Shown piece by piece: positions 1-63,283 of a stretch of 63,283 nucleotides of DNA (within the stretch, counting starts at the first letter, position 1; each line of letters opens with the position of its first letter). The stretch covers positions 124,001 to 187,283 of the forward strand of contig MEDY01000003.1 of the NCBI GenBank assembly GCA_001724265.1. Reading direction: 5' to 3'. A model generated the notes under the pieces. It worked only from the letters and a program-made list of their open reading frames with translations, was not told where the DNA came from and searched no databases. Source of the DNA: Rhizaria sp. SCN 62-66. Its lineage: Eukaryota. Both the position numbers and the translations under genes were made by a program.

Positions 1-1082
1 TTGCCGTTGTTCTTGAGGAAGTACTGCGAGTTGTAGGCGACGATACGCGCCTGGTCGGGCTGCGCCACGTCGGCGAACACAACGTCGACCATGCCGACGA
101 GCATGCGGTAGTTGAGCGGGAGACGCGCGTCGTCGACAATGGGGATGATGTTGGGGCGGCGCTTGGCCATGGTCACGAGGTCGCGGCCGGGGCGCAGCGA
201 GCGCTCGACGGCGTAGACCATGCCCTCGGGGCCGACAAGGTCGGAGACGTGCGAGACGGTGGTACCGGAGGCGGCGCCGATGTACAGCACCTTGGATCCG
301 GGCTTGATGTAGATGTTCTCGACACCGTTGGCGACGGCGGCAGACAGCTTAGAGCGGAAAGGGTTCCACATGCGGTACTCGATCTTGCCCTCGTCCGTCT
401 CCACGGCCACGCGCTTCTCGCCGTAGACGCCCGTGCCGGGGTCCATGGAGCGGGTCGCGAGACCGTCGTCCTTGCCACCGGAGAGGATGAACACGCCATC
501 CAGACGGTGACGCTGGACAGTGTACTTAGAGCCACCGGCGCGCTTGGGGGCACCGCCGCGACCGCCACGGCCACCGGCACCGCCGCGGCCACCGCGACCG
601 CCAGCACCGCCGCGGCCACCAGCGCCGCCACGGCCGCCGCCGAAACCACCGGCAGCGCCACCACGGCCACCGCCAAAGCCTGCGGAAAGCGGGGGAGTGC
701 GCGCGGAGGGGCAAGAGAGAGGGAAAAAGAGAGGAGAAGCAACAGAGGAGCGAAGGAGTGGGGCAGGAGAAGGTGAGAGTCGGTGGGCGTTTGGTGTCGT
801 TCGAAGCCACCACGGGCAAGTGGGAAGTTTCGAGGGATAATGCATGCGGGATCGCATGGGAGTTGTTTCAGAAGTAGATTAACTCGAATGGTTTTTCATG
901 TAAAGTGTGATATGCGATCAGAACGCGATGAACGGGTCGAAAGAGAGGCACGGCTGTCGCCACGCATAAAAAGTGGGCGAGGACTGAGGGAAAAAGGAAT
1001 GCATGAGATACGTACCACCACGACCGCCACGAGGAGCGGCACCACCACGGAAGCCACCACCACGACCACCACGACTGCTCAT
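1..1082 (-). CDS. FBL: Fibrillarin (rRNA 2'-O-methyltransferase, box C/D snoRNP), 3' end outside window
   Basis: Exons 1082-1016 ([14 protein letters not shown]...) and 679-<1; intron 1015-680 GTACG..CAG, phase 1. RGG-rich N-terminus, then [67 protein letters not shown]. Not represented in the ORF track in this frame. Confidence 0.97.
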
Positions 1083-1471
1083 TTTACTGTCAGTGTGATA
1101 CTATGTTCGAACAAAGAGTTCTAGTCAATATCCGCAAGCTCACCTGCCAGCCCCAGAAGCCCCACTCGGTCGGTCGGGCTCGGTCGGCCGAGTCTGACCG
1201 AGGACTGACAAAGTTAGGCCGGACGGATTTTTTCGACCGCCTGACCGGCGAGCGAGCCGTCCGACTGCAAGCCAAGTGAGATTTGAAAAAGACACCTCTG
1301 CCCTGACATATATAATCTGTCATTCGCACTTCACGCGATTTTGCCGAATAGCATATCTTTTTAAATCTCTGCCTTATTATTCATTTTGCTTACAAACACG
1401 TTTGATCACTGGACTCCGTCGTCTTCGATTGCCCTCTTGTGCTCTATGGCCAACAGCTCTCGCTCGCCCCT

Positions 1472-7782: not shown

Positions 7783-10700
7783 ATGTCTCAGGCCGGCCGC
7801 GCTGCTACCGGCGCCAACCCTGGCGCTGCGGCCGCTCGCAGCGCCAGTGCAAACGGCCGTGCGAATGCTGCTGGCGCTGCTGCTGCGAACAACCAAGCAG
7901 GCGGAGGCATCCCTCGCGTCTTCAACGTCGCCGAGAAGAATTCCGTCGCCCGCGAAATCTCCCGTATTCTCTCCGAAGGCTCTTTCCGCACCGTACGTCT
8001 TCTTTGCTCTTCGCGTCATGCTATTACATAGTTTTATGTTCACTCACTCGCCCACCGCCACACTGTCTTATTTCGTCATCAAACCGCTGCAGATCGACAC
8101 GACGTCAAACACAACCCCTGTTTACGAGTTTCCGTTTACCCTGCAGGGCCAGCGCGTGACGATGGTCTTCACCTCTGTCTCGGGCCACCTCAAGAACATT
8201 GACTTCGCGCAGCACCTGCCGTGGGACTCGACCCCGCCCGACCTGCTGCTACGGCCTGCGCTGTGCCCCGTGCTCAAGCAGCCCTCGCCCGACGCGCGCC
8301 AGCAGGACATTTTGCGCAACCTTAAGACGCACGCCGCGGGGTGCGCGCGCCTCGTGCTCTGGCTCGACTGCGACCGCGAAGGGGAGAACATCGCCTTTGA
8401 GGTAATCGACGTCTGGACCACTGTGAAAACGACATTGCCGGCGCGCACGGCTGTCGCACGGGCGCGCTTCTCCACGCTGGTGCCGGAGGAGATTGCGCGC
8501 GCCGTGCGGGACTTGGCGCGGCCCAACCAGCTGCAGTCGGAGGCCGTCGACGCGCGCCAAGAGGTATGACGGCGATTTATCATTAGAATTGAACATATTA
8601 TGACACATATTTGCGCTGCCACGTTAATCTTTATTCAATCACTGAAATATTCGTTTTCAATATCGTAGTGAGATATTAAGTCAGTAACTGCACATATACC
8701 TTGTTAACGTACATCTGTAAATTTTGTTCCCTGGCTTGCCATTCGTAGGTTGATTTGCGCATCGGCGCTGCCTTCACGCGGTTCCAAACCCTGCTCCTGC
8801 GCGACTCCTTCGACAACAACTCTTCGATTGTCTCCTACGGGCCCTGTCAGTTCCCGACCCTGGGCTTTGTCGCCCGCCGCTTCCAGCAGCGGGAGAAGTT
8901 CGCTTCCACGCCCTTCTGGAGCCTGGATCTGACGTACACGGACCCGGCGACGCTCGCGCGTGCGACCTTCGCGTGGCAGCGCGGTCGCTGCTACGACCGG
9001 CACGTGACGGCCGCGCTGTTGCACTCTGCGCTGTCGGCGCCGCACGCCGTCGTGCTCGACACGGCGATGCGCGGCGCGGTCAAGCGGCGACCGGTCCCAC
9101 TCACCACAGTCGAGATGCAGGTGTTAGCCTCGCGGCACCTCAAGATGCCCGCGCGGCACTCGCTCGAGGTCGCCGAGGCGCTCTACCAGACGGGGTTTAT
9201 CTCATACCCGCGCACGGAGACGAGCGTCTTCTCGCGGGAGTTTGACATCGTGAGCCAAATCGGCCGGCTGGGCTCGGGCCGAGTGCGCGCGATGTCCCCG
9301 CAGGAGTGCGAGGTATATGACCGCGAGCAGCAGGGCGCGAACTCACACAACAACAACAACAACAACAATGCTGACAATGACGCTGCCGCTGCTGCTGTTG
9401 CCGCTGCGGCTGCTGCTGCGGCTGCAGGCCCAGGCCCGCAGGGCCCGGGCCCCGCTCCGGGGGCCCAACGGCAGCAGCAGCAGCAGCGGTGGCGTTTACC
9501 GCAGCAAGCCGTTGCGGCCCACGGGCACCCGCGCCCGCGCCAGTCGCCCGCCGTGATGGAGCCTGACGTCTACGCAGACCTGCTGCTGACGGACCCGGGG
9601 GCGTTCGAGTGGCCGGCCCATGGCGGGCACGACGACGGCGCACACCCCCCGATTCACCCCCTCAAGCCGCCGACGGCGGACATCACGGGCGACCACCGGC
9701 GGCTGTACGACCTGATTGTGCGGCACTTTCTGGCCAGCTGTTCGGGGGACGCGCGCGGCAGCACGACCAAAGTTTCGGTGCAGTGCGGCACGGAGGTCTT
9801 CGCCACGAGCGGGCTCATGGTGAGCGAGTACAACTACCTGCGAGTGTTTAAGTGGGACAAGTGGTCCGAGTCGACCGTGCCACTGCTCTACAACGGGATG
9901 ACCTTTGCGCCCGCCTCGGTGTCCATGCGCGAAGGAGCCACGGTCGCGCCATTGCTGCTGACCGAGGCCGAGCTGCTGGGGCTGATGAACAGCCACGGCA
10001 TCGGCACCGACGCCACGATGGCGGCCCACATCGACACGATCATTACGCGCAAGTACGTGTCGTACCATGAGGGCACGCTCACGCCCACGCCGCTGGGACT
10101 CGCGCTCATTAAGTCCTACGACGCGGTCAAGATCGCGCTCGCCGAGCCCAGCATGCGGGCGCGCATGGAGGCGAGCCTCGCACTCATCAGCGCAGGCAAG
10201 ACCACCAAGGCCACGGTCGTCGCGCAGTGCTGCGCGGAGATGCTCGACGTGCTACAAAAGGTCCAGTCAAAGGGCCAGCTCCTGCTGCCGTTCTTCGAGA
10301 AAGCGCTGGCCAAGGTGCAGCGCCGCACCGAGACGCTCGTGGAGCGGTTTTCGCATTGCGGCCACTGCAAGGAATGCAGCATGGAGCTTGTGCGCGAGAC
10401 TGTGACACGTCAGCAGCAGCCGCAGCCGCCGGGACAGCCGGGGCAGGAAGTTAAGCCGCCCGCCCACGGTCAGTCGGACGGACAGGGGTGTGCGGTGGCG
10501 ACGCATCTGGTGCTGTCATGTCCGTCCTGCGGCGGTTTTGGCCCGGGCGGTTACGCGAAGCACATGCGGGAGCTGAAGCGCGAGAATGGCGCTGAGGGCG
10601 ACGGTGACGGCGGCGGTGGCGGCGGTCAGAAGGGCGAGGGGCGTGGCAAGACGCGGAAGAGCAGCCGCCGCAGCCGCAGTCGCGGGATGAAGCGGCGCCG

Positions 10701-15783: not shown

Positions 15784-18135
15784 ATGGCAGGTCATGCTGT
15801 GTCAGCTGGTGGCATCAAGCCGACCAACAGCAGCAACAAGACCAACGCTGTTGTTCTGACGCTGGGTGTTCTCGTCATCCTCGTCAGTATCCTCGTCGGC
15901 GCACAACGCCAGATTCTTGCCAAGCTTACCGCGCTTGCCCCTGAGCCTTACATGGTCCGTACCCATCCTCTTTGCAATGCTCCCCGCTCAGATATCACAT
16001 ATGGTCGCAATCCGATACAAGTCGGAATCCCTCGATATACACAACTCATGGCTTCGTGATACTGCATGTGTATGCTTTTATAGGACGAAATCTTCCACAT
16101 TCCGCAGACGCAGGCCTATTGTGCGGGTCTCTGGCGCCACTGGGACTCCAAGATCACCACCCTGCCCGGCCTGTACCTGTTCGCGGTCGCCTTCTCCAAG
16201 CTCGCCACGGCGGTGCACAGCCTCGCGCCCGCGCTCGCAGCGCCGCTGCTCGCACCGGGGGAGGCTGCGCCCGTGGCCGGGTTTTGCTCGGTGTTCGTGC
16301 TGCGGTCCGTCAACACGCTCTTCGCCGCGGCGACGGCCGTGATCGTCTTCCTCCTCCTCAGGAAGCTACACTACTCCCCCAGCGGCAGCGGCGGCGACCG
16401 AGCGTCCGAGGGCGCCGCCGCCGTGCGTGCCGAGGGCGGGACGGCGTTTGGCGCGGTGATGCTGCTGCTGCGGGCCGCACACGTGCTGCTGTTGCCGACG
16501 CACGCGTTCTTCTATTCGCTGTTTTACACCGACGCGGGTGCCGTGTTCTTCGTGCTGCTGACGTACTACCTCAGCGTGCTCGCCACCGACAAGCACATCG
16601 AGCTCTGCCGCGTCGGACAGGCACTGCGGTTACATAACATGTCGAGCCAGGGTCAGAGTCAGGATCAAAACAAGAAAGCTGATGCAACAGTCACTGTTAC
16701 TTTCACTTCTCGGCTTTGCTATGTTTTTTTGGCCGTGTCGTGCGGTGTCGCAGGCGCTGTTTCCGTGTTATTCCGCCAAACTAACGTCGTGTGGGCTGGG
16801 TTCATTCTTGCCCTCTCACTCATTCGCACTCTCACCGCCACCACGAGCGACAATACGTCAGTTGAGTCGAATTCAAGCTCTAGTTCTCTCTCGGACTCGA
16901 ACTCCAACTCGAACTCACGCGTCAGCTCACAGGCCCAGTCCCCATCGACTCTGCTGACCGAGATGCCCCTGTGGCAGCAGCCCTTCTTGCTCCTGCGCGC
17001 CCTCCTGTCCCGTCCCGCGCTGCTGCTGCTGCATCAGCTGCCCCTGCTTGCGGTCGTCGCAGCCTTCGGCGTCTTCGTCCAGGTCAACGGCGGCATCACG
17101 GTCGGCGACAAGGAGAACCACGTCGCCGGGCTCCACCTCATGCAGCCTTGGTATCTTGCGCTTTTCACGCTCTCGGCTGTGTCGCCCGCCGCCGTGCTCA
17201 CGGTCTTTGTGAACGTCATCAACACGGTCATGACGTTGCCGGGCCCACAAGTCGACGCACAGCAGGTGAACAATGCCGAAAACAAAGGCAACAATACCAA
17301 GAATGCAATTGAAGCGAGGAGTCTCAAGTCCGTGCTGTTTATTATCGCTTTTATAGTTGTTCTGACAGTTGTTGCAGTGATTTGCGCGCGCTACGGGACC
17401 GTTGTTCACGTCTTCATCCTCGCTGACAACAGGCACCTGCCGTTTTACCTCTACCGCCGCCTCTGGGGCCTCTGGTGGTGGGTCAAGTATGCGCTTGCTC
17501 CCATGTACGCCGTGTGCGCAGTGCTTATCGACCGCACACTTAACGCCACCCACGCCATTAACACGGATATTTCAAACGGCGGAGCCAAGAACGGCGAGAA
17601 TAAGAATGCTGCGACGGTCACCGAACACTCCCACGTGGCTGTGGCGACTTCGCCGCTGGTGCGCGTGCTGTTTTACCTGGCATGCGCGGCGGCACTGGTG
17701 CCTTCTCCGCTGGTCGAGTTCCGCTACTTCACGCTGCCATGGTTCTGGGTCGCGCTGCACCAGCCGCTGCTCATGTGCTCGCAGCTGCTGCCGTGCGCGC
17801 AGCCGCAGTCGTGCGCTGCGCAATCATCGTCGCAACCACGGGCTTGTAGCGTGCAGTCGCAGTTGCCGTCCGTTCGCGGTGCACAGTCAGCCGGAGACGA
17901 GAGGAAGAGTGCCGATGCGTCTGAGTCTGCAGCGAACAAGAACATGAACAGTAGCAACGCCGTCGCCGCCGCTGCTTGCGCTAGCCCGAATACCAACGGT
18001 CTCGCGCTCGTCCAGCTCGTCATCTCGGTGCTCTGGCTGTTCCTGTTCGTGGTCGTCAACGCGGCGGCGTGGTATGTGTTCCTCTACAAGCCCTTCACCT
18101 GGCCCGACGGCTCCGTGGCGCGCTTCATGTGGTGA
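15784..18135 (+). CDS. ALG10: Dol-P-Glc alpha-1,2-glucosyltransferase (ALG10/DIE2)
   Basis: Exons 15784-15954 and 16084-18135 join as PEPYM|DEIFHIPQTQAYC. Motifs WDSKITTLPGLY, FYTD, FRQTNVVW, NGGITVGDKENH, FILADNRH, PSPLVEFRYF, terminal RFMW; many hydrophobic segments. Ends TGA. Confidence 0.94.
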
Positions 18136-18376
18136 GTCAAGTCACTGCCAGTCAAGCTTGGGTTACCTAGAGTGTGAGAGTGTGTTACTGTGTAACTGTT
18201 GTCAGGAGTTTGGGTCATGTTCGGAAAATATTGAGTTTATTAAAGTGTAATAAAATCGTTACTATTTAGCAATTGGTTATTTCACCAAGAATATCACATA
18301 TTCTCACTGATATCACAACTTATTAAAGTGTGTACAAAGTATTCATCGTCGCCATCGTTAAAAGTAAAGGTTGTGC

Positions 18377-21300
18377 TTACTGCAAGGGCACTGCAGTCTC
18401 TTGGAACATGTGAACGGACTTAAGCGCAGACGCACACACAAACGCAGCCGCGCCGCCGTTCTGTGCAAGATTACTGTTTGCACGGTGGCTACTGAGGGGG
18501 CGGATGCACGTCCACTTCTCCCCACCCACACTGGCGCTACCCAGTCCGGCCGGGGTACTTAGACTGGGCGGGTCGGTCCAGTCGTACAGCACGTCGCCCG
18601 AGGCGGGGGAGAGACTCGCGATCTGGCCAGTGAAGGCCGCCGCAAGCACCGCAGTCCTGTCACTTGCACTCGCACTGTTGAGCCGAGAGCTAGAGTTCGC
18701 GTTGGCCTTGCTGCTGTAGTTGTTGTAGAGCGAGTGCGTGAGGGCAGAGAGCTTAAGCAGCTGCAGAGACCTGACGTCGACGCCGCCAAAGCTGTTGCGC
18801 CAGATCAGGCCCGTCGGAGTGTCGCCGACAACAGGGGCGCTGACAGCAGAACCCCCCTTCGATGCGGCGGTGTGCATGGGCGTGGTGCTGTAGCGCGGGC
18901 TGGTGTAAGTGCCCCAGCCCCTTAGATCCCAGCACTGCACGCTGCCATCGGCGTGTCCAGTATACAAGCACAGCGCAGCGCCGCCGTCACCGCCGCCGTT
19001 GGAGTCATTTGTGGTGAGAACGATCGACGAGAGCGGGTCGCACTGAGGAGTCGACCATACCGGCGACGTGCCTGCGCAGAAACGATCAAAGAATTGAACA
19101 TACAATCATATATGTAATAGTTCTAGTGAGATTAAGCAATACCACACAATACCGATTGATACACGTGACAATTAAGCTTGTAACTATTTTAAGTTTATAT
19201 TCGCAAATTAGTTCGAGATTGATAACGTACCGGCCCTGCAGTCCCAGAGTAGCCCGCGCCCGTCTGCACCGGCCGTGGCCACGACTGCTGGCGCCGCGCC
19301 GCAAACGGCGACGTCGAACACGGCCCCCGCGTGACCGCGGAAGACTGCGACGCCGGCGCGCTCGAAGGCGGTCAGCGAGGCCGGGAGCCCAGAGGCGGCG
19401 GCGGCGTCGACCGCGGCCGGGGAGGCGAAGCGCGCGCGCGAACAGTCCCACAGGCGCAGTTCGTTGTCGCCCGCGCCCGCCGTGTAGAGCAGGCCGGCCG
19501 AGCGCGGCTGGAAGGCCACGGCGCGCACCGTGGCTAAACAAGTCAATACGCAGCAAATACAAGAAAGCAAGTGGGAGGATGAGTGTTAAGCAAACATAAA
19601 CTAAAGGAAATATGGTGTTGCGAACATAATCAAATTGTTGCTCATGTTCAATGTTACGATGTTACGTACCGGTGTGTGCGTGCAAGTTAGCTTGCTCCGC
19701 GAAATACGGCTCCAGCTCCCGCAGCACGTCATCGCTCTCATCCTCCTCATTCTCAGCCACGTCACCATCAGCAGCATTCACACTCTTACCCTTGGCCTTG
19801 TTAGTCGGCGTCTTAGGTTTGCCGCCCTTCGTGCCAGCCTTGACCGCAGCAGTAGTGCCTGCGCTGGCGGAGTTGGTGGTGCTATTGACTGGAGCCCCGG
19901 CGCGGACCACGGTCACCTTGACCACGGGGTGATTCGACGAGCAGGCCATGAGCCCCAACGCCGACGCGTCGCTGTACAACGCGCGCGACGGGCCCGTGCC
20001 AGGCGCGCTCACAGTCCCACTCGCACTCGCAACATTGACGGCGCTGCTCGACTTGGAAGTCTTCGTGTTGTTGTTGGGGGTGGTGACGACGTCAGGGGGA
20101 ATGTAGCCCGCAGCGGCAAAAACGACGCTGTTGGCGTTGGCTCGCGCGCCCTTAGACGGGGTAGACTTGTTAGCCGGGGTACTTACACTGGTGGCACTTA
20201 CACCAGCGATGGGCCGTTGGAGCGCGAGTGAGTAGATTGAGCCGTGGTGGAAGTCAACGTACTTACGCACCACAGAGGCACTTACACCAGTACTTACATT
20301 AGAGCTACTCGAGGAAGGGCTGAGACGGCAGATACTCACTTCCTTGTTGTTATTGCCAACAAACAGCCATTGCTTCAGGTTGACGTCACTCTTGCCGCCC
20401 TTGCTCTTCGCAACTGCGCCCTTCGCCGTGTTGGGGCTGGAGCTGGGGTTGGGGTTGGCCTCTGCGTCCGAGTCTGAATCCGACTCGGGGAACAGAGCGA
20501 GCGCGCGCACGGGGGCCTTGAGACCGCTCATGAGCTTGCTGTGCTTGCTCACAGTCACCGTGTTCACCGTCGCTGTGCTCTAGCTCACGGCCACTGCGTC
20601 ATCGTTGCTCACGGTCGCTGTGTCAGTCGTGGCCCCAGCGGCTTTGTCATCTCTGCTCACAGTCAGCTTGCTCTCAGAACTCTTGAAGGCGCCGATATTA
20701 GCAAATGAAGTGTTGTTGTCGTTCAGAGGCGTCGCCAGCGTGTGCCTATGCGCGCTGCGTCTGCTGTCGTCGCCGTAATCATCGCCGCTGTCATCACCCT
20801 CGTCAGCCTCGCTCGTGTTGAGCGAACTCAGCGGCGGCCGCGACAGCGACGCAAAGCCGCCGCCTCTCGCAGCTCTCCCGTCTCTGCCGCCGCCGCCGGT
20901 CCCGCTCGCTGCTGCAGCGGTCGCGGCGGCGGCGGGGGATGTGACCGAGGCAGAGGCGGATGCAGCGGCAACCGCGGGGACGGTGACGGCTGCCTTCGTC
21001 GACACAAAAGTCGCAGAAGCAGGGTTTCTAGTGTTTGTGTTTGCAGCAGCGCTGTTGTTCGCGTTGTTCTGGCTAGGAATCGCGTCACAATCGCTTTCAC
21101 TGTCGCTCGCACCGGGCTGCTTCCTCCCGGTCTCGATCGCAGCAGACTGACCGTGAGCAGTGTCCGAGTGCCCGTGCGCCGCGTCCGAATGACCGTGGGC
21201 CGTGGAGATCGGTGTCCGGCGGCCCGCAATAACTGGGTCCAGTGCATGCGGGTAGCTGCTGAAGCTGCCGCTGACGCTCATGGCCGCACCCCCACTCGCA

Positions 21301-24300
21301 CTCGTCGTGCTACTCCCGGGGTCGCCGTTCGCGTTGCTGTTGTCACCGGTCGTCTTCGCATTGCTGTTGTTGGTGTTGTCTTTAGCAAAGCGGCTGCGAC
21401 GAGGCAGCGCGCCCGGAGCGGGACTCTGACCAGGAGCCGCCGTGGCAGTCGCACTTGCACCAACAGGCGCAGCGGTGGCAGCAGGAGCAGCAGATGCATT
21501 CGCACTTGCTGTTGCGCTAGAGCCGGTGCTGGGACTGCTGCTGCTCGCGCTACCACGAGTGCTGCTGCCGCTACCACTGTTGCTGTTGCTGCCGTTGAGC
21601 AAGGCGGCCGGGCCCAAGTCCAGTCCCAGCTCCTGTCCGATGTCGCGCTTGGACCGGGCCACGACCACGGCGCCCAGCGAGCCCGCGGGCGCCGGCGCCA
21701 GGGCCACGAGCGGCGACGGAAGCGCGCGCGCCGTGTCGCGGGCAGAAGGCTGGGCCGAAGGGGGGACTGTGTCGCGGTCACGTGCCGAGGGCTGGGCAGA
21801 GAGGGGGATGGAGCTGCTGCTCGAGCGGCGCTGCTGCTGCGGGCCCCGGTTGCTGCTGCTATTGGAACTACTGCTGCTGTTAGAGCTGCTGCTGGTGCTG
21901 TTGTTGTTGTTCTGTCGCTGAATAGCATCGTTGGCGGCGTGCCCGTTGGAGCCTGCGTCGTCGTCCTCGTCACGGTTGAGGCTGTGGCTCAGACTGGCGA
22001 TGTTCGCGACGCCGCTGTCGTCGCTGATGACGATCTTGTGCAGAGTGGCCGTGTGACGTTCGCTGTGACTCGCGCTGCCGTGGACAGTAAAGTTGTGCAG
22101 CGAGGCCCCGTGGTGGGCCGCAGCAGCGGCCCCCAAGGCACTGAGGCCGGCCGGCTCGATGGCACTTACACTGGGGTGCACGGGGGGCGTCACCGTCTCG
22201 GCGACGATCGTGCCCACATAAGTCCCCGTGCTCGGGCTAGGGCTGGGGCTGGAGAGGAGTAATCCTTTCATGGAGCTCCCGGTGCCAGCGGGAGGCGTGG
22301 CTGGACTCGGGCTGGAGAGGAGGGCCTTGAGGCCGGCGTCGTCGGCGCCAGCGGCCTCTGCCGCCATGACCAGGGCGCCGTTGGGGAGACTGTGGATGTG
22401 AGCGATGCTGCTTTGGCTGTGGTCAATGTCGTCGTTGTTGTCGCTGCCGGAGTGGTGATCGTTGGCACGGGGGAGATCAGTGGCAAGCAAAGACTTGAGG
22501 CCGCCGGCGCCCCACCGGCCAGTGTCGTTGAAGCCTGGCGCGGCTGCACTCGCACTCTCTGCCTCAGGGGCAGAGTCCAGAGTCGTATCGTCGTCGTCGC
22601 CGTTGTCGCCGTCATTGTTGTTAGGATTCGCGTTGTTGGTTCGAGAGTCGTCGTCAGAGATGTGGTCCTGGGGGGTGTAAGTGCCATTTGCAGTGTAACT
22701 ACCCTTCGCATCATCGTCGCCGTCGTCAATGTAGCCGTTGTTCTGCGTGTTGGCGCTGTTATAAGGCGTATGCGGCTAGCCCTTAGACTTGCAAGAAACG
22801 GATCGATTCACATCCTTCTCCGCCTTCACGTCTAAGGGGGTGTCAAAGCTGACAACTCCACGACTCCGCTGTTCGTTGCTGTTGTTGTTGTTACTGTTAG
22901 CTACATCGTCATTCGAGTCGTCCAAGTACCCCGACACGTTGTTCGCATCACCAGTGGCGTTAGAGTCAGCATTGTCATCATCATCAAAGTACTTGTTGTG
23001 CTCGCCAATGTAAGCGTTCGCATCAGAACCAGAGGCAGCAGCACCAGTAGCAGGAGCTGAGGCAATGCTGACGTCGCCGGCGTTCGAGACATCGACATCG
23101 CTGCAGTCTTTGTCATCATCGCGATCGTCATCGTCGTCATCGTTGCCGTAACCGTTGACAAAGGCATTGCCGTCGCCGTCCTAGTCCTCGTCGTCGTCAT
23201 ACTCGTCGTCATTGTTGTTGTTATTGTTGTTGTTGTTACTGTAGGAGCCGTTGACCTTGCGTCCCTTGCCCCTTAGACTCACCTCGAGCACGCCGCCACA
23301 ATACACGCCACTTAGATCCCCGCCGACACCCGCCGCGGAACCCTTAGATGGCTCCTGACCATCCTGTTCCTGGGAGTGCTGATGTGACTGAGTGTCCAGC
23401 TTCTGCTGCTGTTTCGCCAGCGCCCGGGCCCGCGCGGCGGCCACCTTGGCCTCCGCCACCGTCTCCGCCGACTGCAACACGTCAGCCAGCGCAATCAGCA
23501 CGCTCTCAGCGGCGCCTAGTCGGCCCCCAGGCACCGACCAGCCCGCGTAGGCGCCCGCGTACCCGCAGTCGCCGGCTAAGAGGGTACTTAGATCCGCGGG
23601 GTGAGTGCCCGGCGCGCGCACGGCGGCGGGCAGGCAAGCGCAGAGGGCCTCAAAGGCGGCGGGGGTCGGGGCGAGGCGCTTAAGGTCCTTGAGGCAGGCG
23701 ATGACGGCGGCGGTGAAGTCAGACAGCGACCAGAGCCCCGCCGCCGCGCTAGTCGCAGCACTCGAGCTCGACGCAGCAGAAGCAGAAGCGGAGGCTGGGG
23801 AAGCAAGAGAGAAGAGAGAGACGGGGACCGAGAAGGGCGGGGCAAAGCCGTGCGAGTCAACGAACGCGTTGTGGCGGGCCGAAATCGCTGTCACCGCCGC
23901 CGCGGCAGTCGCCTCTGCGTCAGGAGTGATGCTGGGGTTGGTGGCGGCTGCAGTGGCCTGGCTGATCGCAGCGAAGAGCAGCTCTGGCGTCAGATTGTTG
24001 TTGTTGTTGTCAGTGCTCTGTGACTGGCCGCTTAGCCCCCCCGAATGTAAGTACACCCTTACACAGTGCTCGGTGGCGACGTGCAGCATCTCGAGCAGCT
24101 GCTGCTCGCGCAAAGGGTAGAATACGCGCTCCCAGGCACGCGCCACGCCCTCGATGATCGGGAACCGCTTGCCCGCGTTGCTGTAGTTATGGTTATACTG
24201 GAAGCCCTGGCCATGTGTACTTCCCGGGTACCCGTGAGCGCCCCCACCAGTCGGACCCATGATACCGCTCATGTTGGCGCCGGCGCCGTCGCCGCTGGCG

Positions 24301-24926
24301 GTGGCATTGATGTGTCCGGCGGAAGTGGCGAGGAACGCCGTCTCGGAGGGATCGCGGAGCTCGCCAGACGCGGCCGTCAGCGCCACGCGCAAGCTGGCGT
24401 CGGCCTCGCGCCAGCGGCCGGAGAGAACGAGTGACCGCAGATGCGCCAGCTCGGGCCGCAGCACCGGCGCACCGGGCCCCGCCGCTGCACCAGCTGCGCC
24501 AGGAGTGGATTCGGTCTGGGCGCTCTCGTGGCCGCCCGAGGGCACAAGGAGGCTGGGCGGCAGCGCGGCGACGTCGACGACGCCAGACTCGCGCTCGAGC
24601 GCGGCGTGGGCCGCGAAGTGGCGGTGCGTGCGAAGCCACTTGAGCACGGCGCGAGTTTGCGTCGCGACAGAGGCGGACACCGCGGCACTGCCGCGCGCGC
24701 CAGGGCCGGAGCTGGGGGCCGAGCCAGAGCCGGAGCTAGAGTTCGAGCTGGAGCTGGAGCTGGAGCTGGAGCTGGAGGTCGCAGTGGCGGGGGCTGCGGC
24801 GGCGCGGGGGGGCGGGGCAGGGCCGTGGCTGTTGGGGCCGGGGCTCGTACCGCCCGATGTGTTGACACCGTCGGGAGTGTTGTTTACGGCGCCAGGCCCG
24901 CCGTAAACGGCAGGATAAGGCGGCAT
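18377..24926 (-). CDS. WDR47: WDR47/nemitin-like LisH-CTLH-WD40 protein (~2084 aa) with three in-frame TAG codons
   Basis: Exons 24926-19670, 19533-19231, 19071-18377. N-terminal LisH/CTLH-like (VLKWLRTHRHFAAHAALERESGV; ELAHLRSLVLSGRWREA); C-terminal WD40s (FHHGSIYSL, HTATVRAVAF, FRGHAGAV, TGHADGSVQCWD). Exon 1 stays in one frame through TAG at 23183-23181, 22778-22776 and 20582-20580. Ends TAA. Confidence 0.78.
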
Positions 24927-25466
24927 GGGATTGTGCTAGAGTGTGGGAGTGTGTTGGGTGGGTTGAGTCTGGGCGTGGGGTGTTTGAAATGAGAGACCGT
25001 GTTGTGAGTCGGTATCGTCCAAAGAGTGTGCCAATTGAAATGTAAAAAGAGGAAAAGATACAAGTTTATATAAAATTATTGTATGTATCAAATTGAACGC
25101 TGTTGACGATCGGGATGAGTCGAGTGTGGTCGTTTTTACTGGGCACTAAGCCTCCCACTCCCTGCTGGCTACCAACAAACCCGACTGGCTTCGCAGACTG
25201 CCGACTTGTTCGTTTCAGATAAGACGCCAAATGACCGTCACTGCGCATATTTCCCTTAAGTCATTAAATATTAGTGTTGTTGTGCAATGATCACACAATT
25301 ATGTTGTATGAAATGACCTTTGTGATGTACATCTCGCAGTCTCCGCACGCACCCACTCCAGATGCTCTTCGCTCTCAGTCTCTCACTTATCTACACTGCA
25401 ACCGAACCTTCACTCACCTCACATCTCTTTCTCGCCGCGATGTGTTGCTATCTTTAGACCGGCGCT

Positions 25467-27881
25467 ATGTCCAACCTGGCCCGCGTCGTGCGCGCCTCGT
25501 CCAAGGCCGCCGCGCGCAGCAACTCCGCCGCCTCCTCCGCCCTGTCACACTCGCAATCGCACTCAGCCTCCACAAGCTCGGGCTCGAGCACCGCCGGCTC
25601 CAGCGCTGCTACAGGCGGCGCAGTGCACATTCCGGTCAAGTTCCTCTCGTTCGCGCCCCAGTCGGGCCACATCGATGGCGTGGGCCGCTCGCTTAACGCC
25701 GCCGCCGTCGGCACCATGCTCGGCGCCACCAAGGCCGCCGCCGCGTCGCGCAACGCCGCCAACGGCAGCGCGGCGCAGTTCTCCACTTCCGCGGCCGACG
25801 GCACTGCCGTTACTGCGCAGCCTGCAGCGGTGGACCCGGAGACGCGCTTCCAGAAAATCAACGCGCACTTCCGCACTCGACACACCGGTACGTCCTGCGT
25901 GTGATCGCACACTTGACTTGGAACAAAACATTAAATCATGGATTGAAAAGTGTCGCACATCAGAATTATATAACTATGGAACTTCGTCGAACAGTGTAAA
26001 TTGTGTTTCTCTACATCTTTATTATCGTTTCTTACTCACAATTACTATCCATTGTCAAAACGCCATGTTTCGCTCTGCATCTGCGCGGCTGCCACAGCCA
26101 AGGACCACATCATCCACGGGCAGCACTACGACGTGCGCGTGGCCGCGGTGCGCAACACCGACACGCTGCGCGACGCCGCCGCGCGCCACGGGCTCATGTC
26201 CGAGGAAGCGTCCTACTGGGGGCCCATGGCCGCGGGCGCTTCGCTGTACGCGTCCTTCCTGCGCGGCGACGAGCGCGTTAAGGTCGAGATCGCTATGCAG
26301 GGCGCCGACACGTTCAGCAACGGCAGCAGCGACGACGGTGACGGCGACGGCGGTGGGGAGATCAACACGGTGTATATCGAGGGTTTCGCGGTTGGCGAGG
26401 TGCGCGGCTACGCCAAGTTCGAGCAGTTGCGCGTTGAGAAGGCCCTTGCGGGGCTCGCTAACATGCGCCTGCAGCAGCAAAAGGAGGCGCTCGCGGAGCA
26501 GCAGCAGCGCGCTCTCAGTCCGGAGGAGACCGAGGCCGCCGCCGCCGCCGCCGATCTGAACGAGGCCGAGGCCGAGGCTGAGGCCGCCACTCAACAGCTG
26601 AGCGCCGGTAACCGTGAGCGTGCGCGCCTCTCCGGCGCCGTGCCCGCAGCAGCCAGCGTGGGCGGCATCATGCAGGTGTCCAAGGTTCTTTACGGCATGC
26701 ACACGCCCTACGTCTCCAAGACCCCAGCTACGGGCCACCCGGCCGAGGACTGGAACACGTTCTTCTCGCAGTCGGAGCAGATCGCGTCCTTCATGCACTG
26801 CGCCGTAGACATCACCACCGCGGGATCGGGCACACCTGTCAGTACCTCTGAGTCCGTCGCTGGTTTGCGTGAGGGTACGCATGAGTCCGGCGCCGTGCTG
26901 GGCGGCGGAGTGACTGTAAGCACCGCCGCCGAGGCCGCCGAGGCCACGGGCGGCCATGGTCTGCAGCCGGGCCAGAGCGCCGTGTCGCTCGCGCCCATCG
27001 CGGAGAGCGACGTCAAGTTCTGCGGCGGTGTGTTGGTGCAGGTGCTGGCAGGGAGCCCCGATCCAGTGCTGGCCGCAGACATCCTCAGCGCGCGCCCCCG
27101 CCCTGCCAATTGCAATGACACCCCCACGAGTACCGGAACTTCTGCTGACACGAGCAACACTGCGAGTGGTGCGGAGATTGGCGGCCAGGGCCACGTGGAG
27201 GAGACCGACGACGCGTACGTGAAGCGTGTGCAGCTGGAGCGTCTGCGCGCGCGCGTGTTGTCCCTCGACATGGCCGCACTGGTGGCCTCCCACGGCGTCG
27301 CGGGGTACGTGGCCGCCGTGCTGGGCCGCGATCCCGCCCTGCTCACAGTCACCCCGCCCACGGTCACCGAGACGCTCGGCTTCAACGCGGCCGGCGAGCG
27401 CGATTTCGAGGCGCTGGAGCGGCGCTGCGTCGACTCGAGTTACACCACGCAGCAGGCCGCCAAGGCGCCCGGTGTTGCGGAGGCCTACGGCGCGCGGCTG
27501 GGGTGGGCGTACCGGCCCGTGGCTTTCTTCTGCCGCTGCTCGCAGGCCAAGCCGGAGCAAAAGGTACGCGAACAGTCAACATATCGAATTGATATACGTC
27601 TTGCTTTAATTGAAAATATTAAATTTGCTAATTATATATGAGATTCCTATATGATTTGAAACTATATCTTGATCTAAGTGCTCTTATTGCTTACATCGTA
27701 CTGGTTCATGTATTCTTTTGCATAATAGCTCCGTGGCCTGCCTCTGGACCTGCTCGAGGAGCTGGCCGCCGAGGGTGAGGCCGTGTTCACGTGTGACTAC
27801 TGCCGCCACGAAGTCGTCGCCACGGCGCAACAGCTAACAGACGCCGCCAACGAGCTCAAGAACAAGATGGCCGGCAAGTGA
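25467..27881 (+). CDS. hslO: Hsp33 (HslO)-family redox-regulated chaperone with N-terminal extension
   Basis: Exons 25467-25887, 26098-27563, 27729-27881. KDHIIHG..VRVAAVRNTDTLRDAAARHGL, LRGDERVKVEI, GEVRGY, FFSQSEQIAS, GGVLVQVL and redox motif FFCRCS...FTCDYC (CxC-x-CxxC). Ends TGA. Confidence 0.88.
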
Positions 27882-31425: not shown

Positions 31426-31797
31426 TGGTGTCTATGAAGAGTCTGACGAGGATGCATTAGAAGAGGTGAGACTTAATGGAACAAATAAAATGTACAATAA
31501 CGCATTTCAAACACCAGATCAAAAAACTGGCTTGAAAATGAGTGGTCTACCTCAAGATCAGCTTTGTTTAATGTGGAGTTGCGGGCTTGCGGAAGCTTCG
31601 GGTCGAGGCGAGATGTGGTGACGCGGCAAAATCGGCTTTCTTTCAAAGACAATCCTACGTCCCATGTCCGTTGAATGTAAATGCGGTAGTTTTTCAGGTT
31701 ATAATAATAGTGTATTGTTTCTTTTATAAAATCTTACTTCTTGGATCTGCGTTTCCCGTGTACCCAAACTCTTTTCCCGAAACAGTCTCAGCTCGCC

Positions 31798-33297: not shown

Positions 33298-35033
33298 TCA
33301 GATAGCGCTCTTCTTGCCCGGGACGCCGGAGCCGATCTTCTGGATGAGCCGCGGCTTCACCACGATATACCCCTCCTCGACCTCCTCGAGACGGCCCTTG
33401 AGCTTGCGGCCAACAACGCCGCCGATCTTGACCTCGGGCTGCGCAGACAGACGGTGCTTGCGCACCTCCTTGATACGGTCGGAGTCGGTCTAAACGAAGC
33501 AAAACAAGCAAAAACAAGCAATAGTCAGTTTGTTCGAGACAAAATAGTGAAAGTGAGGTTAAATATCATCACACGGTTCATAAACGATGAAATTTAGAAA
33601 TAATAGCGTTCGTGCTTTAGTTAAACATAGTGTAGTCAATTTGCTGCATGATGCCCATCATATCGATCTTAGTTAGGAGTTCTGTGATGTTTACGTACGC
33701 GCTTGACCTCGGCCTCGGTGAGGCCGCGCTCCTTGGCGACCTCGGCAGCCAGACTGGCGACTGTGGCGCCTGCGGCAGGCTTCTTGGCGGCCTTGGCCAG
33801 CGCGGCGTCGACGAGAGCAACGCGGCGCGAGAGCGCCTCGGCGGACGCCACGGCGGCCGCCTTGGCGGCGGCCTTCTTGGCGTCGCTCTTGGCCTTGGCG
33901 GCGATGGCGGCGGCGATGGCGGCGCTCGCAGCCTCGTCCTCGTCGTCCTCGTCGGCGTCGTCCTCGCCGTTGTTGTTGCCGTCTTCGTCGTCGTCGCCGG
34001 AGGAGGCGTTGTCGTCGATGTCACCGGCCGCAACGTCGTCGTCGTCGTCATCCTCGTTATCGTCGTCGTCGTCGTCAGCGGCGTCGTTCCTGGCAGATTC
34101 GTCGAAGTTGGTGAAGAGTTGCTCGAACTCCTCCTCCTCGAGCTTGCCGACATCGATCATCGACAGGGCGCGGGTCACGGCCTCCTCCTTGAGCTCCGTA
34201 GACAGCAGGTTCGCGCCCTTGCGAGCCGCAACAACCGCGATGTCAACGGGCGCCGCAGCGCTGCGGGAACGCTTGACAACGGGGCCCGCGGACTCGTCCT
34301 GGTCCTCGGCGTCCTCAGCGTCGTCGTCGCTGTCGTCGTCGTCGTCGTCGTCGGTGTCGGCGGCGCCGAGGGTCTGGAGCTTGGTCATGAGCTTGATACG
34401 CTTCTCGAGCTGGGTCGCCGTGTCCTGCATGATGTTCACCTTGATGTCGCGCGCCATGGCGACGTAATTGTCGCCGTGCTTCTTGATCAGGTGCTGCAGA
34501 CGGTACCTGCGAGTGTGATACCACAATACAGAAGCGAGAAGCAAAAGAGGATACAAATCAGTGAATATAATAAGTTGATAACGCCACACTTGACATCATG
34601 GTGTTTGATAGTGACAAATAACCAATATATCGATCATGTTGATAAAAAAAGATCATACACGTGAGATATACATTGTTATATACAGAAGTTGTGATTTGAC
34701 GTACTGCTCCTGGACCGACATAGACTTGACCTGGTAGGAGGCGCGCTTGGGGGCAGCCTGGGCCTTCTCAAGTCGGGCCGTCATGCTGCCGCTGCCGCCA
34801 ATCTCGGTTGCGCCCGCGGGGCCGCGCTTGCGGACGGTGGGCAGCGCCTCGTTGGCATCGAAGACGATACCGAGGTTGCGGTAGTTCTGGCGCTGCGACA
34901 GACGCTCGTCCCAGCCCTCGATGTTCGTGCGGTGGGCAAGCGCAGCATTGTGCGCGTAGTGCTGCGTGCGCTTGTGCTTGTGGCGCTGTGACTTGGTATG
35001 GGCAAGGCCAGAACGCTTACGGTTAGCCCTCAT
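33298..35033 (-). CDS. NOP16: Nucleolar protein 16 (ribosome biogenesis) with long acidic C-terminal extension
   Basis: Exons 35033-34705, 34506-33699, 33489-33298. Motifs WDERLSQRQNYRNLGI and LIKKHGDNYVAMARDIKVNIMQDTATQLEKRI. Ends TGA. Confidence 0.85.
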
Positions 35034-35813: not shown

Positions 35814-38800
35814 ATGTCCTCGTACGCGGAACGTGCAGGAGCTCCCGCCGCCTCGGCCAAGCCCAACAACAACTCGACTAAGCCCGCCGCTGCTTCTGCC
35901 GCTGCCGCTGCTGCCAAGCCCGCCGCTCCCAAGAGCGCCGCCGCTGCCGTTGCCGCTGCCGCTGCTCCTGCTTCTAAGTCTTCTTCTGCTGCTGTTTCTT
36001 CCACCGTTCCGCCTACTAAGTCCGCCTCTAACAAGTCGGGTTCGTCCAAGTCCAACAAGGGCTCTGACAACTTCGACCTGCTTGGCGATTCACCCATCGA
36101 GCCCAAGACCCGCCACCAGGTACGACTCCTGATATCTTCTTCAAATTTCCTCTACTGTGCTTGAGTTACACTACCGTTTTAGATCCTGTGTAGTCAGCAT
36201 TGCTGGTATGTAACTGAACTATAACGATTCTTTTCATTCGCTCACGCCTCATTTTCATGATACTATATTCCCCTCCAACAGGGTGTGGGCATCGTCAAGA
36301 ACGTCCTCTCCGCGACGTCGATCATCGTTTCCGGTGCCGGCAAGGAGAAGCGTCTCGTGCTCTCGGGCATCACCGCCCCCCGCCTGGGCTTCGGCCCCCA
36401 GAGCGTGGACGAGCCCTTCGCCTTCCAGGCCAAGGAGTTCACCCGCGCCCTCCTCCTGGGCAAGAAGGTCTCCTTCGTCCTCGTTAACGGCGCCGCCGAG
36501 AACGAGGGCTCGTCGGAGCAGGCCGAGGTGACGCTCGACGGTGTCAACGTCGCCCACGCCGTCGTCTCCGCTGGCTGGGCCAAGACCTCGATCCCGCCCT
36601 ACCTCACCCGCGGCAACGCCACCACGGCCGCCGACAACGCCGTCCCCGACGCCGTCACCAAGAAGGACAAGAAGGCCGGCGCCGCCGTCGCTGCCCCCGC
36701 GCCCGCGGCTGCCCCGTCGTTCGACGCGTCGCAGCTGCCCGCGGACCGCGCTGCGATCTACAAGCTCCAGCTCGCGGCCGAGAAGAACAAGGTGGGCATG
36801 TTCAAGCCCAACCCCGTGGCCACCGTGCGCAAGATCAACCGTGCGCCCGTGCACCTGTCGTGGCTCAAGGCGCACAAGGGCAAGCCCGTGCACGCGATCG
36901 TGGACCGCGTCATGGACGGCTCGATGCTTCGCCTCGAGATCCCTGACCCCGCCAACCCGGCCTCGCTGCAGCACACGATGCTCACGGTCAACCTCGCCGG
37001 CGCTCGCTGCGCACGTATGCCCATGAGCAGCGACAAGAACGCCGTCGCCCCCGAGGGCGCGGCCGAGGCCGTGGCGTTCGTCGAGCAGCGTCTGCTAAAC
37101 CGCGACGTGGAGCTCGTCCTGCTCGGCCTCGACAAGGCCGGTCAGGCCACCAACTCCCAGGGCGCGCTCTACGGCTCCATCAACCACCCCAAGGGCAACA
37201 TCGCGGTCCGCCTGCTCGAGACCAACCTCGCCAAGTACGTCCCCTGGACTGCCGCGCTGCTGCCCGAGGACGAGCGCGCCCAGCTCCAGGCCGCTGCCAA
37301 CGTCACCGCGTCCTCCACCCCGTCCGGCGGCAAGCCCTTCGAGGCGACTGTCGTGCAGATCGTCTCCGGCGACGTCCTCGTCATCAAGACGGCCGACGGC
37401 AAGGAGCAGCGCGTGTGCCTCGCGTCGGTGTCTGCGCCTCGCTCGTCCCGCGACAAGTCCGAGCCGTTCGCGTTCGAGGCCAAGGAGTTCCTCCGCAAGT
37501 CGCTCATCATGAAGCCCGTGACGGTGATCCCTGAGTACACCCGCGAGGGCAAGGCTGCGTCGCCCGAGGAGAAGGGCGAGATGCGCCAGTACGTCACCGT
37601 CTTCAAGGGCAAGTACAACGTCGCCACCGAGCTCGTCGCCGCCGGCCTCGCCGACGTCACCCCGTACTCCAAGGAGGCTGACCGCCCCGCGAGCTACGTC
37701 GAGCTGTGCGCCGCCGAGGCCGCGGCCATCGCCGGCGAGAAGGGCAAGCACTCGAAGAAGGCCCACCCCGCGCAGGTCCATGACTTTACCCGCGTTAACG
37801 AGCGCCGCCGTGGTGGTGCCGCCGCCGCCGCCGCTGACGAGAGCAAGTCGAGCAAGAACGATGCCGCGCAGACCAACAAGGCTAACGCGGACCGCCTCAA
37901 GATCGTGCTGGACAAGCTCATTGCGCAGCAGAACGTGCACGGCGTTGTCGAGGCCGTGTTCGCGCCCAACCTGCTTAAGGTCTTCGTGCCCATGCTCCAT
38001 GCCTACATCCCCGTCACCTTCGCCGCCATCCAGGGCCCCCGCTCCGCGCGCCGCGCTGCCGACGAGGCCGAGGAGGCTGAGGAGGGCGCCAAGGAGAAGT
38101 CCGCCGCCAAGTACAAGGGCTACTCCGACTCCGCCATGGCTATTCTGAAGCAGTACATGCAGCAGGACATCACGCTCGAGGTCTCTGCGCTGTCCCGCCA
38201 GGACTCGTTCCTCGCCAACGTGCTCGTCACCGCCCCCGGCGCCGCGGCCGGCACCCCCAAGGACAACCTCGCCGTGACCCTCGTCAAGCAGGGCCTGGCG
38301 GCGCTGATCCCGCCCGTTGCCGAGCGCAACGCGTACAAGAAGCAGCTCCAGCAGGCCGAGTCCGAGGCCAAGAAGCGCCACCTCAACATCTGGGTCGACT
38401 ACGACGAGGAGAAGGAGCGCGCCGAGTATGAGAAGGCCCGCACCGAGGCTGCCCAGGCCGTGCTTGGCGCTGGCACCTTCGTCAAGGACGACGTCCAGTA
38501 CCTCCACTGCGTCGTCACCGACGTTGTCGACCCCGTGCACTTCTACATCAACTCGAGCGACGACAAGAACGTCGAGCTTGTCAAGGAGAAGATGGCTGCC
38601 TTCTCCGGCAGCGAGGCCGCGCCCGCCGAGTGGAAGCCCATCCGCAACGACATCGTCGCCGCGCTCTTCGACGAGGACAACTCATGGTACCGCGCCCGCA
38701 TCGACAACGTCAACACCAAGTCGGAGCTCTACTCGATCCAGTTCATCGACTTCGGCAACGTCACCGCTGTGCCCCTCTCGGCCCTGCGCCCCCTGCCCAA

Positions 38801-39200
38801 GGACCTCGCCGCCATCAAGCCCCTGGCGCGCCCCTGCAAGCTCTCGTGCCTCAAGCCCCCGATCGCGGGCTCTGAGTACTTCGAGGCCGCTGCCAACGCC
38901 TTCGCCGACATCACTGCGGGCGTCAAGTTCGCCGCCCGCATCGACGGCGCCGAGCCTGCCCCCAGCCAGCTGCTGTATCTCACCCTGTACCCGGCCGAGG
39001 TCGTCGCCGAGGGCAAGATGAAGGATGCTGCGTCGGCCAATACCGAGCTCATCCGCGCCGGCTGGCTCCGCGTCAACCCGCGCCCCCCGCGCCGTCTCGA
39101 CGCTCTGATCCCTGAGCTCGAGCGCGTCGAGGCCGAGGCCCGCGCCAGCCACGTCAACATCTGGGAGTACGGCTACTACGCCTCCGACATGGACGATTAA
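35814..39200 (+). CDS. SND1: Tudor staphylococcal nuclease (Tudor-SN/p100)
   Basis: Exons 35814-36119 and 36282-39200. Repeated SNase domains (DEPFAFQAKEF, EPFAFEAKEFLRK), Tudor cage ALFDEDNSWYRARI..FIDFGN, terminal EAEARASHVNIWEYG. Ends TAA. Confidence 0.95.
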
Positions 39201-50598: not shown

Positions 50599-50618
50599 TT
50601 ACGCCGACGGGCCCGGGG

Positions 50619-50650
<32 letters not shown>

Positions 50651-62600: not shown

Positions 62601-63283
62601 TGGCGAGCTTGCGCGCGATCTGCATCTTCCACTTGCGCTCGCGGGAGAAGTCGTTACCCAGCCACTCCATTTCCTGCAGCAGAAAGTCCCAGTGCGTCTT
62701 GTTGCGCGGGGGCTCCTGCGCGCGGCGCAGGCGCTTGCCGGCCTCGACCTGTGGAAAAATACATGGCAAACAAAGCAAAGATTATTGTCAAAAAGGGACA
62801 TAGAAATGCCAAACATAGAAAATGGAATCAATGAAAAAACATGAAGAAATTGTTGTTGTTTCAGCGGCGTACCTGAAACTTCTTGATGATTTGCACGAGG
62901 TCCGCCTTGCGGCGCTGCAGCTCCTCAAGCGGGGGCAGCACCTCATCCGGCGACCGTATCGCCCACGCGGCCAGCTCCTGCGGCTTGAGGCCCAGCACGG
63001 TGGAAGCGGACTGGGACAGCGCGCGGCGGAAGAGCTCCTCGACCTGCGGGCTCAGCTGCGCCATGTTATGTTGCGCTTGGCTATGCGCGTGCGCCGCCGC
63101 GTGCAGCTGCGCCGCGACGGCGTCCTGGGCCGCGGCGAGCGTGTTGGTGCTCGCGCCGGGCTGTTCACCGCCCGCGCCCAGCGGCAGCGCGGCCGCGGGC
63201 GCGTACGGGCTGGACGCGTAGAACCCGGCCTCGGCCGACGCGGCGGCGGCCGCGGCCGCGGCGGCGGCAGCAGTGGCCGCGGC
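50599..63283 (-). CDS. SWR1: SWR1/SRCAP/Domino/PIE1-type SNF2 chromatin remodeller (H2A.Z deposition), 5' end outside window
   Basis: Exons >63283-62873, 62748-57977, 57847-50599. HSA domain (KTHWDFLLQEMEWLGNDFSRERKWK), split ATPase (NGILADEMGLGKT, LILDEAHNIKNFKS, LLLTGTPLQNNLMELW, QLRKVCNHPDLF; DCGKLQ, FYDSDWNP, QDRCHRIGQTR), SANT/Myb-like WRSDEDTLL...QCLLRY. Ends TAA. Confidence 0.95.
51080..51366. repeat. Coding hexamer microsatellite encoding (AQ)n
   Basis: Degenerate GCCTGC/GCCTGA/GCCTGG/GCTTGC array at the SWR1 C-terminus. Confidence 0.9.

Follow-up and report, generated by a model that had tools for sequence, protein, structure and literature searches.

The stretch analysed here is 63,283 nucleotides (nt) of contig MEDY01000003.1 from Rhizaria sp. 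SCN 62-66 (positions 124,001 to 187,283, forward strand), hereafter called the window and numbered from its first letter. It has a GC content of ~0.62 and holds ~22 genes, which are intron-poor, with long single-exon genes. On the minus strand, at 24926-18377, lies a gene whose long first exon is interrupted by three in-frame TAG codons and by no other stop. A second minus-strand gene, at 45120-39511, is interrupted by four more.

Structure of the TAG-interrupted gene

The gene at 24926-18377 consists of three exons and two introns. Exon 1 (24926-19670, 5257 nt) begins with an ATG at 24926, preceded by AT-rich sequence and an in-frame stop, and ends at a GTACGT donor that follows a G, the intron starting at 19669. 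Translated in its single frame, exon 1 gives 1752 codon positions with exactly three stops, all TAG, and 0 TAA and 0 TGA. The first, TAG1 (23183-23181, codon 582, DDED*DGDG), lies within an Asp/Asn-rich low-complexity stretch; TAG2 (22778-22776, codon 717) has the context SKG*PHT; TAG3 (20582-20580, codon 1449, AVS*STA) stands upstream of the WD40-bearing C-terminal part. Intron 1 (19669-19534, 136 nt, GC 0.36, GTACGT...TTTAG) is followed by exon 2 (19533-19231), with two WD40 repeats, then by intron 2 (19230-19072, 159 nt, GC 0.32, GTACGT...GCGCAG) and exon 3 (19071-18377). The latter codes from 19071 to 18380, bears a WD40-like motif (GHADGSVQCWDLRG) with weak PDB matches, and closes with the terminator TAA at 18379-18377, beyond which the 3' flank is AT-rich. 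The three exons splice in phase. With the TAGs read, the chain would comprise ~2080 residues, its N- and C-terminal ends separated by a low-complexity linker of ~1100 residues. The segment between TAG1 and TAG2 contains no Met and therefore cannot be a separate gene. Exon, frame, the positions and contexts of the TAGs, the lack of TAA and TGA, and the WD40 exons downstream are all as an earlier, preliminary description of this DNA had given them.

Past TAG3 the reading frame runs on into a recognisable domain: exon 2 matches the WD40 family in Pfam (PF00400, E=4.1e-7) and WD40 chains in the PDB (down to E=1.1e-13). Neither exon 3 nor the tail of exon 1 gives a significant domain match. For the N-terminus, searched for LisH/CTLH, there is no Pfam match even at E<=10 and no PDB match, and a phmmer search with the N-terminal part over 1.84 billion proteins (representatives) returns only the sequence itself. 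Its neighbour clusters in a protein language model score 0.81-0.87, where the tool's bar is 0.9; 8 of the 10 best belong to the LisH/CTLH group, and in the nearest clusters, some members carry LisH_TPL, LisH_WDR26, TPR1-like_2nd or WDR47_COR. An AlphaFold2 single-sequence model of residues 85-545 has a pLDDT (predicted local distance difference test) of 40 and is unusable. The motifs ALExESGV and AGAGD presumably recall WDR47. The 'WDR47-like' architecture proposed in the preliminary description is plausible, holding firm for the WD40 C-terminus, while the LisH/CTLH part is a lead suggested by the language-model neighbours. With LisH-CTLH...WD40 proteins of the WDR47, WDR26 and TOPLESS type the gene shares the WD40 C-terminus and, as a lead, the language-model neighbourhood of its N-terminus; it differs from them in an N-terminus that none of the Pfam, PDB and phmmer searches matches and in the length of its low-complexity linker.

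Exon 1 is open in one frame only, the other five frames of 24926-19670 containing 17 to 90 stops each. From the position-specific base composition of the frame itself, 3.2 TAA, 14.5 TAG and 2.7 TGA are expected, and 0, 3 and 0 are observed; because of this deficit, the frame is seen to be kept open by selection. GC content at third codon positions (GC3) is raised in all four segments into which the TAGs cut the exon (0.79, 0.60, 0.74 and 0.73).

The stretch is found in metagenome runs from bioreactors and wastewater, one of which, X1, is possibly the sample of origin; its organism is an uncultured microbial eukaryote. The TAGs are not assembly errors, because TAG2 and TAG3 recur in the contigs of other runs and the open reading frame (ORF) ended by TAG1 recurs on four contigs. 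In runs X2 and X3, contigs span 18996-21302 and 21609-22935 with 0 differences, and they contain both TAG3 and TAG2; X2 and X3 are filed under different years and studies yet have identical contig records and depths (18000-25500), and may be one data set. A variant strain is present in X4, a 2025 run from another study; in the exon it departs from the window by 11 substitutions, of which 5 are synonymous and 6 nonsynonymous, and by one 3-nt deletion. The X4 contigs match without any difference where they span TAG3, and at TAG2 the codon itself is unchanged. TAG1 sits in a repeat that is skipped in the read-contig comparison, and the 581-residue ORF ending there is recorded letter for letter on the four contigs, the longest of 141,735 bases. 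The TAGs are thus fixed across different studies, whose samples date from 2016/2017 and from 2025. The contigs over TAG2 and TAG3 also include introns, hence they are DNA-like. From a poly-A metatranscriptome, X8, three short contigs map to the gene, at 18499-18764, 21921-22094 and 23960-24128; each has 0-1 differences, and DNA carry-over is possible for them.

The second locus and the integrity of both frames

The second locus (45120-39511) is a single-exon, low-complexity gene of 1869 codons that ends in TAA and is whole only if four TAGs are read, at 43215-43213, 43056-43054, 43029-43027 and 43020-43018. There is no other in-frame stop. The gene spans exactly one GC-rich block and contains Gln-rich patches and an Arg/Ser-rich tail. 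The existence of a second TAG-bearing locus agrees with the preliminary description. Its TAGs have a mean of 7.75 Gln within 10 residues on either side, against 1.2 overall (P=0.0005), a context that fits an origin from CAG and a reading as Gln. Three of the four fall within 39 nt (43056-43018), with an in-frame ATG three codons beyond the last one. Less probably, the locus is two genes, with a stop at 43215 and a restart at the ATG at 43011; the 201-nt spacer that this division requires, which holds the TAG cluster, has a GC content of 0.71 and shows codon periodicity, and no intergenic stretch resembles it.

Together, the two loci contain seven in-frame TAGs in 3,621 codons, with 0 TAA, 0 TGA and 0 frameshifts. 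Under the standard code, both could be decaying or truncated genes: TAG1 would end a 581-residue product, and the remainder, together with the second locus's distal part, would be former coding sequence in the course of being lost. This is in keeping with the restriction of TAGs to 2 of ~22 genes, none occurring in the other 10,748 codons, and with the share of TAG among the one-step nonsense outcomes for this codon usage (65-69%), which makes it the commonest expected nonsense change. Homologue searches of both genes find none beyond self and no orthologue, and the strain comparison gives no significant constraint. Decay is nevertheless unlikely in view of what accompanies the seven nonsense changes. 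The composition of the two frames predicts 5.9 (this gene) and 7.2 (second locus) unselected TAA and TGA, and none is observed. With this codon usage, ~1.9% of substitutions are nonsense, and seven such changes under neutral decay therefore imply ~350 substitutions and, at the usual indel-to-substitution ratio, many frame-breaking indels, none of which is seen. The sole indel between strains is 3 nt long, and the TAGs are fixed in samples years apart. GC3 periodicity is kept after each TAG, and the splice phases leading to the WD40 exons are intact. The mixed lesions, frameshifts and lost periodicity that mark pseudogenes are absent, TAG being the only lesion. The absence of TAG from gene ends (0/16, see below) likewise finds no place in decay. 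The neutral decay that the preliminary description had named as a threat to its reading fits poorly with these features.

A second explanation under the standard code is that the mRNA is corrected, by adenosine-to-inosine (A-to-I) editing of UAG to UGG (Trp), by U-to-C editing to CAG, or by removal of unusual short, GC-rich introns ending at TAG. Correction of this kind would account for the small number of TAG-bearing genes. For the intron version, introns in the window often end in TAG, and TAG2 and TAG3 could each close a GT..TAG stretch, of 36 nt and 33 nt respectively. The candidate at TAG1, 22 nt long, has a length not divisible by 3. The three candidates do not agree in phase, and they fall far below real introns in length; four real introns were checked and measure 136-182 nt with a GC content of 0.29-0.36. 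The TAG neighbourhoods, by comparison, have a GC content of 0.52-0.62; no AT-rich island exists within exon 1, and no window of the exon drops to the GC content of real introns. Introns removing the TAGs, also foreseen in the preliminary description, are on this composition unlikely.

For the editing version, a precedent exists in the sexual stages of filamentous ascomycetes, where restorative A-to-I editing acts on premature UAG codons in a few of the genes, as reported for Fusarium (PMC4817773, PMC10776026). The likeness lies in the few genes with in-frame UAG within a genome of otherwise standard code. Against this, the A of the TAG falls in a predicted hairpin loop at 4/7 sites, compared with 38% of 121 CAG controls, which is no enrichment. 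Trp is rare in both genes (7 and 3 TGG), and the second locus indicates a CAG ancestry, Gln-like and not Trp-like. With 3-4 sites in each of two genes out of ~22, the density far exceeds that of the 71 pseudogenes in a whole Fusarium genome; terminators in the window include no TAG (0/16), and nothing marks the organism as such a fungus. Correction of the mRNA, by whichever route, is very improbable.

Two artefacts of sequence composition were considered and rejected for the two loci. An antisense artefact is ruled out for both, every plus-strand frame being broken by TAA and TGA. Mutation by repeat-induced point mutation (RIP) is indicated by TpA/ApT above ~0.89 and (CpA+TpG)/(ApC+GpT) below ~1.03; for this gene the two indices are 0.83 and 1.17, for the second locus 0.71 and 1.36, all inside the range seen in other window genes. 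Elsewhere in the window, genes with strong GC3 bias have antisense frames, sharing the third codon position, in which TAG is the only stop, TAA and TGA being absent: 37142-39196 on the minus strand, opposite the Tudor-SN gene, contains 9 TAGs, and 58193-60772 and 51305-53461 on the plus strand contain 4 and 6. GC3-rich antisense composition can therefore mimic genes interrupted only by TAG in GC-rich eukaryotes.

Probable translation of UAG in the window

Gene ends of the window make no use of TAG: among 16, a small sample, 8 are TAA and 8 TGA. TAG usually forms 15-25% of gene terminators, and for shares in that range the probability of 0/16 is ~0.01-0.07.

Taken with the seven TAGs inside two intact frames, this makes it somewhat likelier than even (probability roughly 0.55) that UAG is translated, probably as Gln, while remaining a rare and disfavoured codon. 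UAG would not be an efficient stop: a tRNA pairing with UAG, combined with a release factor that recognises UAG poorly, would let the ribosome insert an amino acid, most probably glutamine, whereas UAA and UGA would terminate all genes. The codon would arise by C-to-T change of CAG and persist only where a weakly biased gene encodes a disordered, low-complexity linker. A single chain would then carry both the LisH/CTLH-like N-terminus and the WD40 C-terminus. Codon bias is indeed weaker in the two TAG-bearing genes, in which TTG/(TTG+CTG) is 0.22, compared with 0.11 elsewhere.

As to the amino acid, the preliminary description proposed Gln. The Gln-rich surroundings of the second-locus TAGs suggest it, and they are the evidence for it; the gene at 24926-18377 lends it nothing, with no Gln within 10 residues of any of its three TAGs. 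Glutamine is thus a best guess from sequence context.

Several results weigh against translation of UAG. The other window genes have 10,748 codons with 402 CAG and 0 in-frame TAG, as opposed to 7 in the 3,621 codons of the two loci (Fisher P=6e-5), and the contrast of TAG with CAG between the two gene sets gives P=4e-5. The weaker codon bias does not remove the discrepancy: a rough sum that scales by the TTG/CTG ratio still predicts ~10 TAG in the other genes. The all-TAG pattern is by itself weak, with a probability of 0.05-0.08 that all 7 of 7 nonsense codons over both loci would be TAG. The regions around all seven TAGs have no homologues, so no conserved column shows their meaning, and UAG occurs at no conserved single-residue alignment column, the 10,748 codons without TAG being those of the conserved genes. 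No tRNA gene and no Rfam match is found in the window, and eRF1 is not within its 63 kb, which are the only part of the genome covered. The comparison with the X4 strain (5 synonymous of 11) is not significant and too small to show constraint, and none of the three X8 RNA contigs on the gene spans a TAG or an intron.

If UAG is still a stop but a leaky one, with high basal or context-driven readthrough by near-cognate tRNAs and no dedicated tRNA, this could also explain why most genes strongly avoid TAG and a few tolerate it. The known readthrough context is of the CARYYA type. The bases after the seven TAGs vary (G, C, A, T, G, C, C), and none of the contexts is of that type; three or four leaky stops in series would yield very little full-length product, and the 0/16 TAG terminators would be left unexplained. 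Leakiness of this sort has only a slim chance of being correct.

The preliminary description's view of UAG as a sense codon accordingly holds in part. Two intact frames with in-frame TAG and gene ends free of it are what it has in its favour; a general code is not shown, with 0 TAG in ~10,700 other codons, and a full, ordinary reassignment of UAG is not supported by the window. A tentative proposal, with odds well short of even, is that the organism belongs to an unsampled, GC-rich, non-ciliate protist lineage in which the capture of UAG is still early or ambiguous. In such a lineage UAG would have gone from gene ends and be translated as Gln, would still be costly and purged from ordinary genes, and would have come back only where weakly biased genes encode disordered linkers, making the organism a living intermediate of stop-to-sense reassignment.

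Comparison with known systems and features of the surrounding window

Very few lineages are known whose nuclear code has changed at UAG alone. According to Panek et al. (2017, PMC5304391), UAG encodes Gln in Iotanema spirale and Leu in the rhizarian exLh. The terminators counted there are 56 UAA and 15 UGA for exLh and 104 UAA and 15 UGA for I. spirale. The window resembles both in that UAG is the only stop codon found in frame and UAA and UGA are the sole terminators, and with UAG translated its organism would join this small group as a new member. The difference is a further point against translation: in exLh and I. spirale, UAG is abundant and occupies conserved Leu or Gln columns of housekeeping genes, with 384 UAG in 71 exLh genes, whereas in the window the ~10,700 codons of the conserved genes include none and UAG is confined to low-complexity parts of two genes. 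Some bias from gene to gene is known in that report as well, UAG being rarest in ribosomal protein genes (PMC5304391). A search of the literature on wastewater eukaryotes found no report of a case like the present one.

Ciliate genomes are AT-rich with tiny introns. The window differs from them in its GC content of ~0.62, its AT-rich introns of 136-182 nt and its long single-exon genes. With UAG translated, it would resemble them in that UAG changes meaning independently of UAA, as in the reassignments of UAG reported for phyllopharyngean ciliates (PMC11687900) and for one ciliate with UAA=Lys and UAG=Glu (PMC10553269).

It has long been asked how a stop codon can turn into a sense codon while the proteome stays functional. 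If true, the loss of UAG from gene ends together with its tolerance solely at unconstrained sites would be the intermediate that both the codon-capture and the ambiguous-intermediate models predict. There is also a practical side. Gene callers cut such genes at TAG, and databases list the 581-residue piece as a protein; proteins of the organism would therefore stand truncated in public collections.

Introns of the window often end in ...TAG, in frame just upstream of exons (16081-16083, 8746-8748, 27726-27728, 33490-33492 and 31432-31434). Where a TAG seems to lengthen an ORF upstream, as in ALG10 and the topoisomerase, it belongs to a 3' splice site (...ttttatag) and is not read-through.

The neighbouring genes encode fibrillarin, an ankyrin-AAA protein, an Arf-like GTPase, an N-terminal methyltransferase, a topoisomerase, uroporphyrinogen decarboxylase, ALG10, Hsp33, ATG27, an ICln-like protein, Nop16, Tudor-SN and an HSA-SNF2 ATPase of 4060 residues. 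The last is a single exon of 4060 codons (50599-62781, minus strand) with HSA, SNF2 and helicase-C domains, similar to SWR1/EP400; its GC3 is 0.89, and it contains 171 CAG and 0 in-frame TAG. No close relative of the organism was found in the genome collection. The fibrillarin gene (3-1100, minus strand) runs off the left end of the window, and a fibrillarin 91% identical to it (P0018) lies on a 30.8-kb metagenome contig, probably from a close relative. The Hsp33 homologue (25974-27881, plus strand), here in a eukaryote, has an intron at 27565-27729 and ends in TGA.

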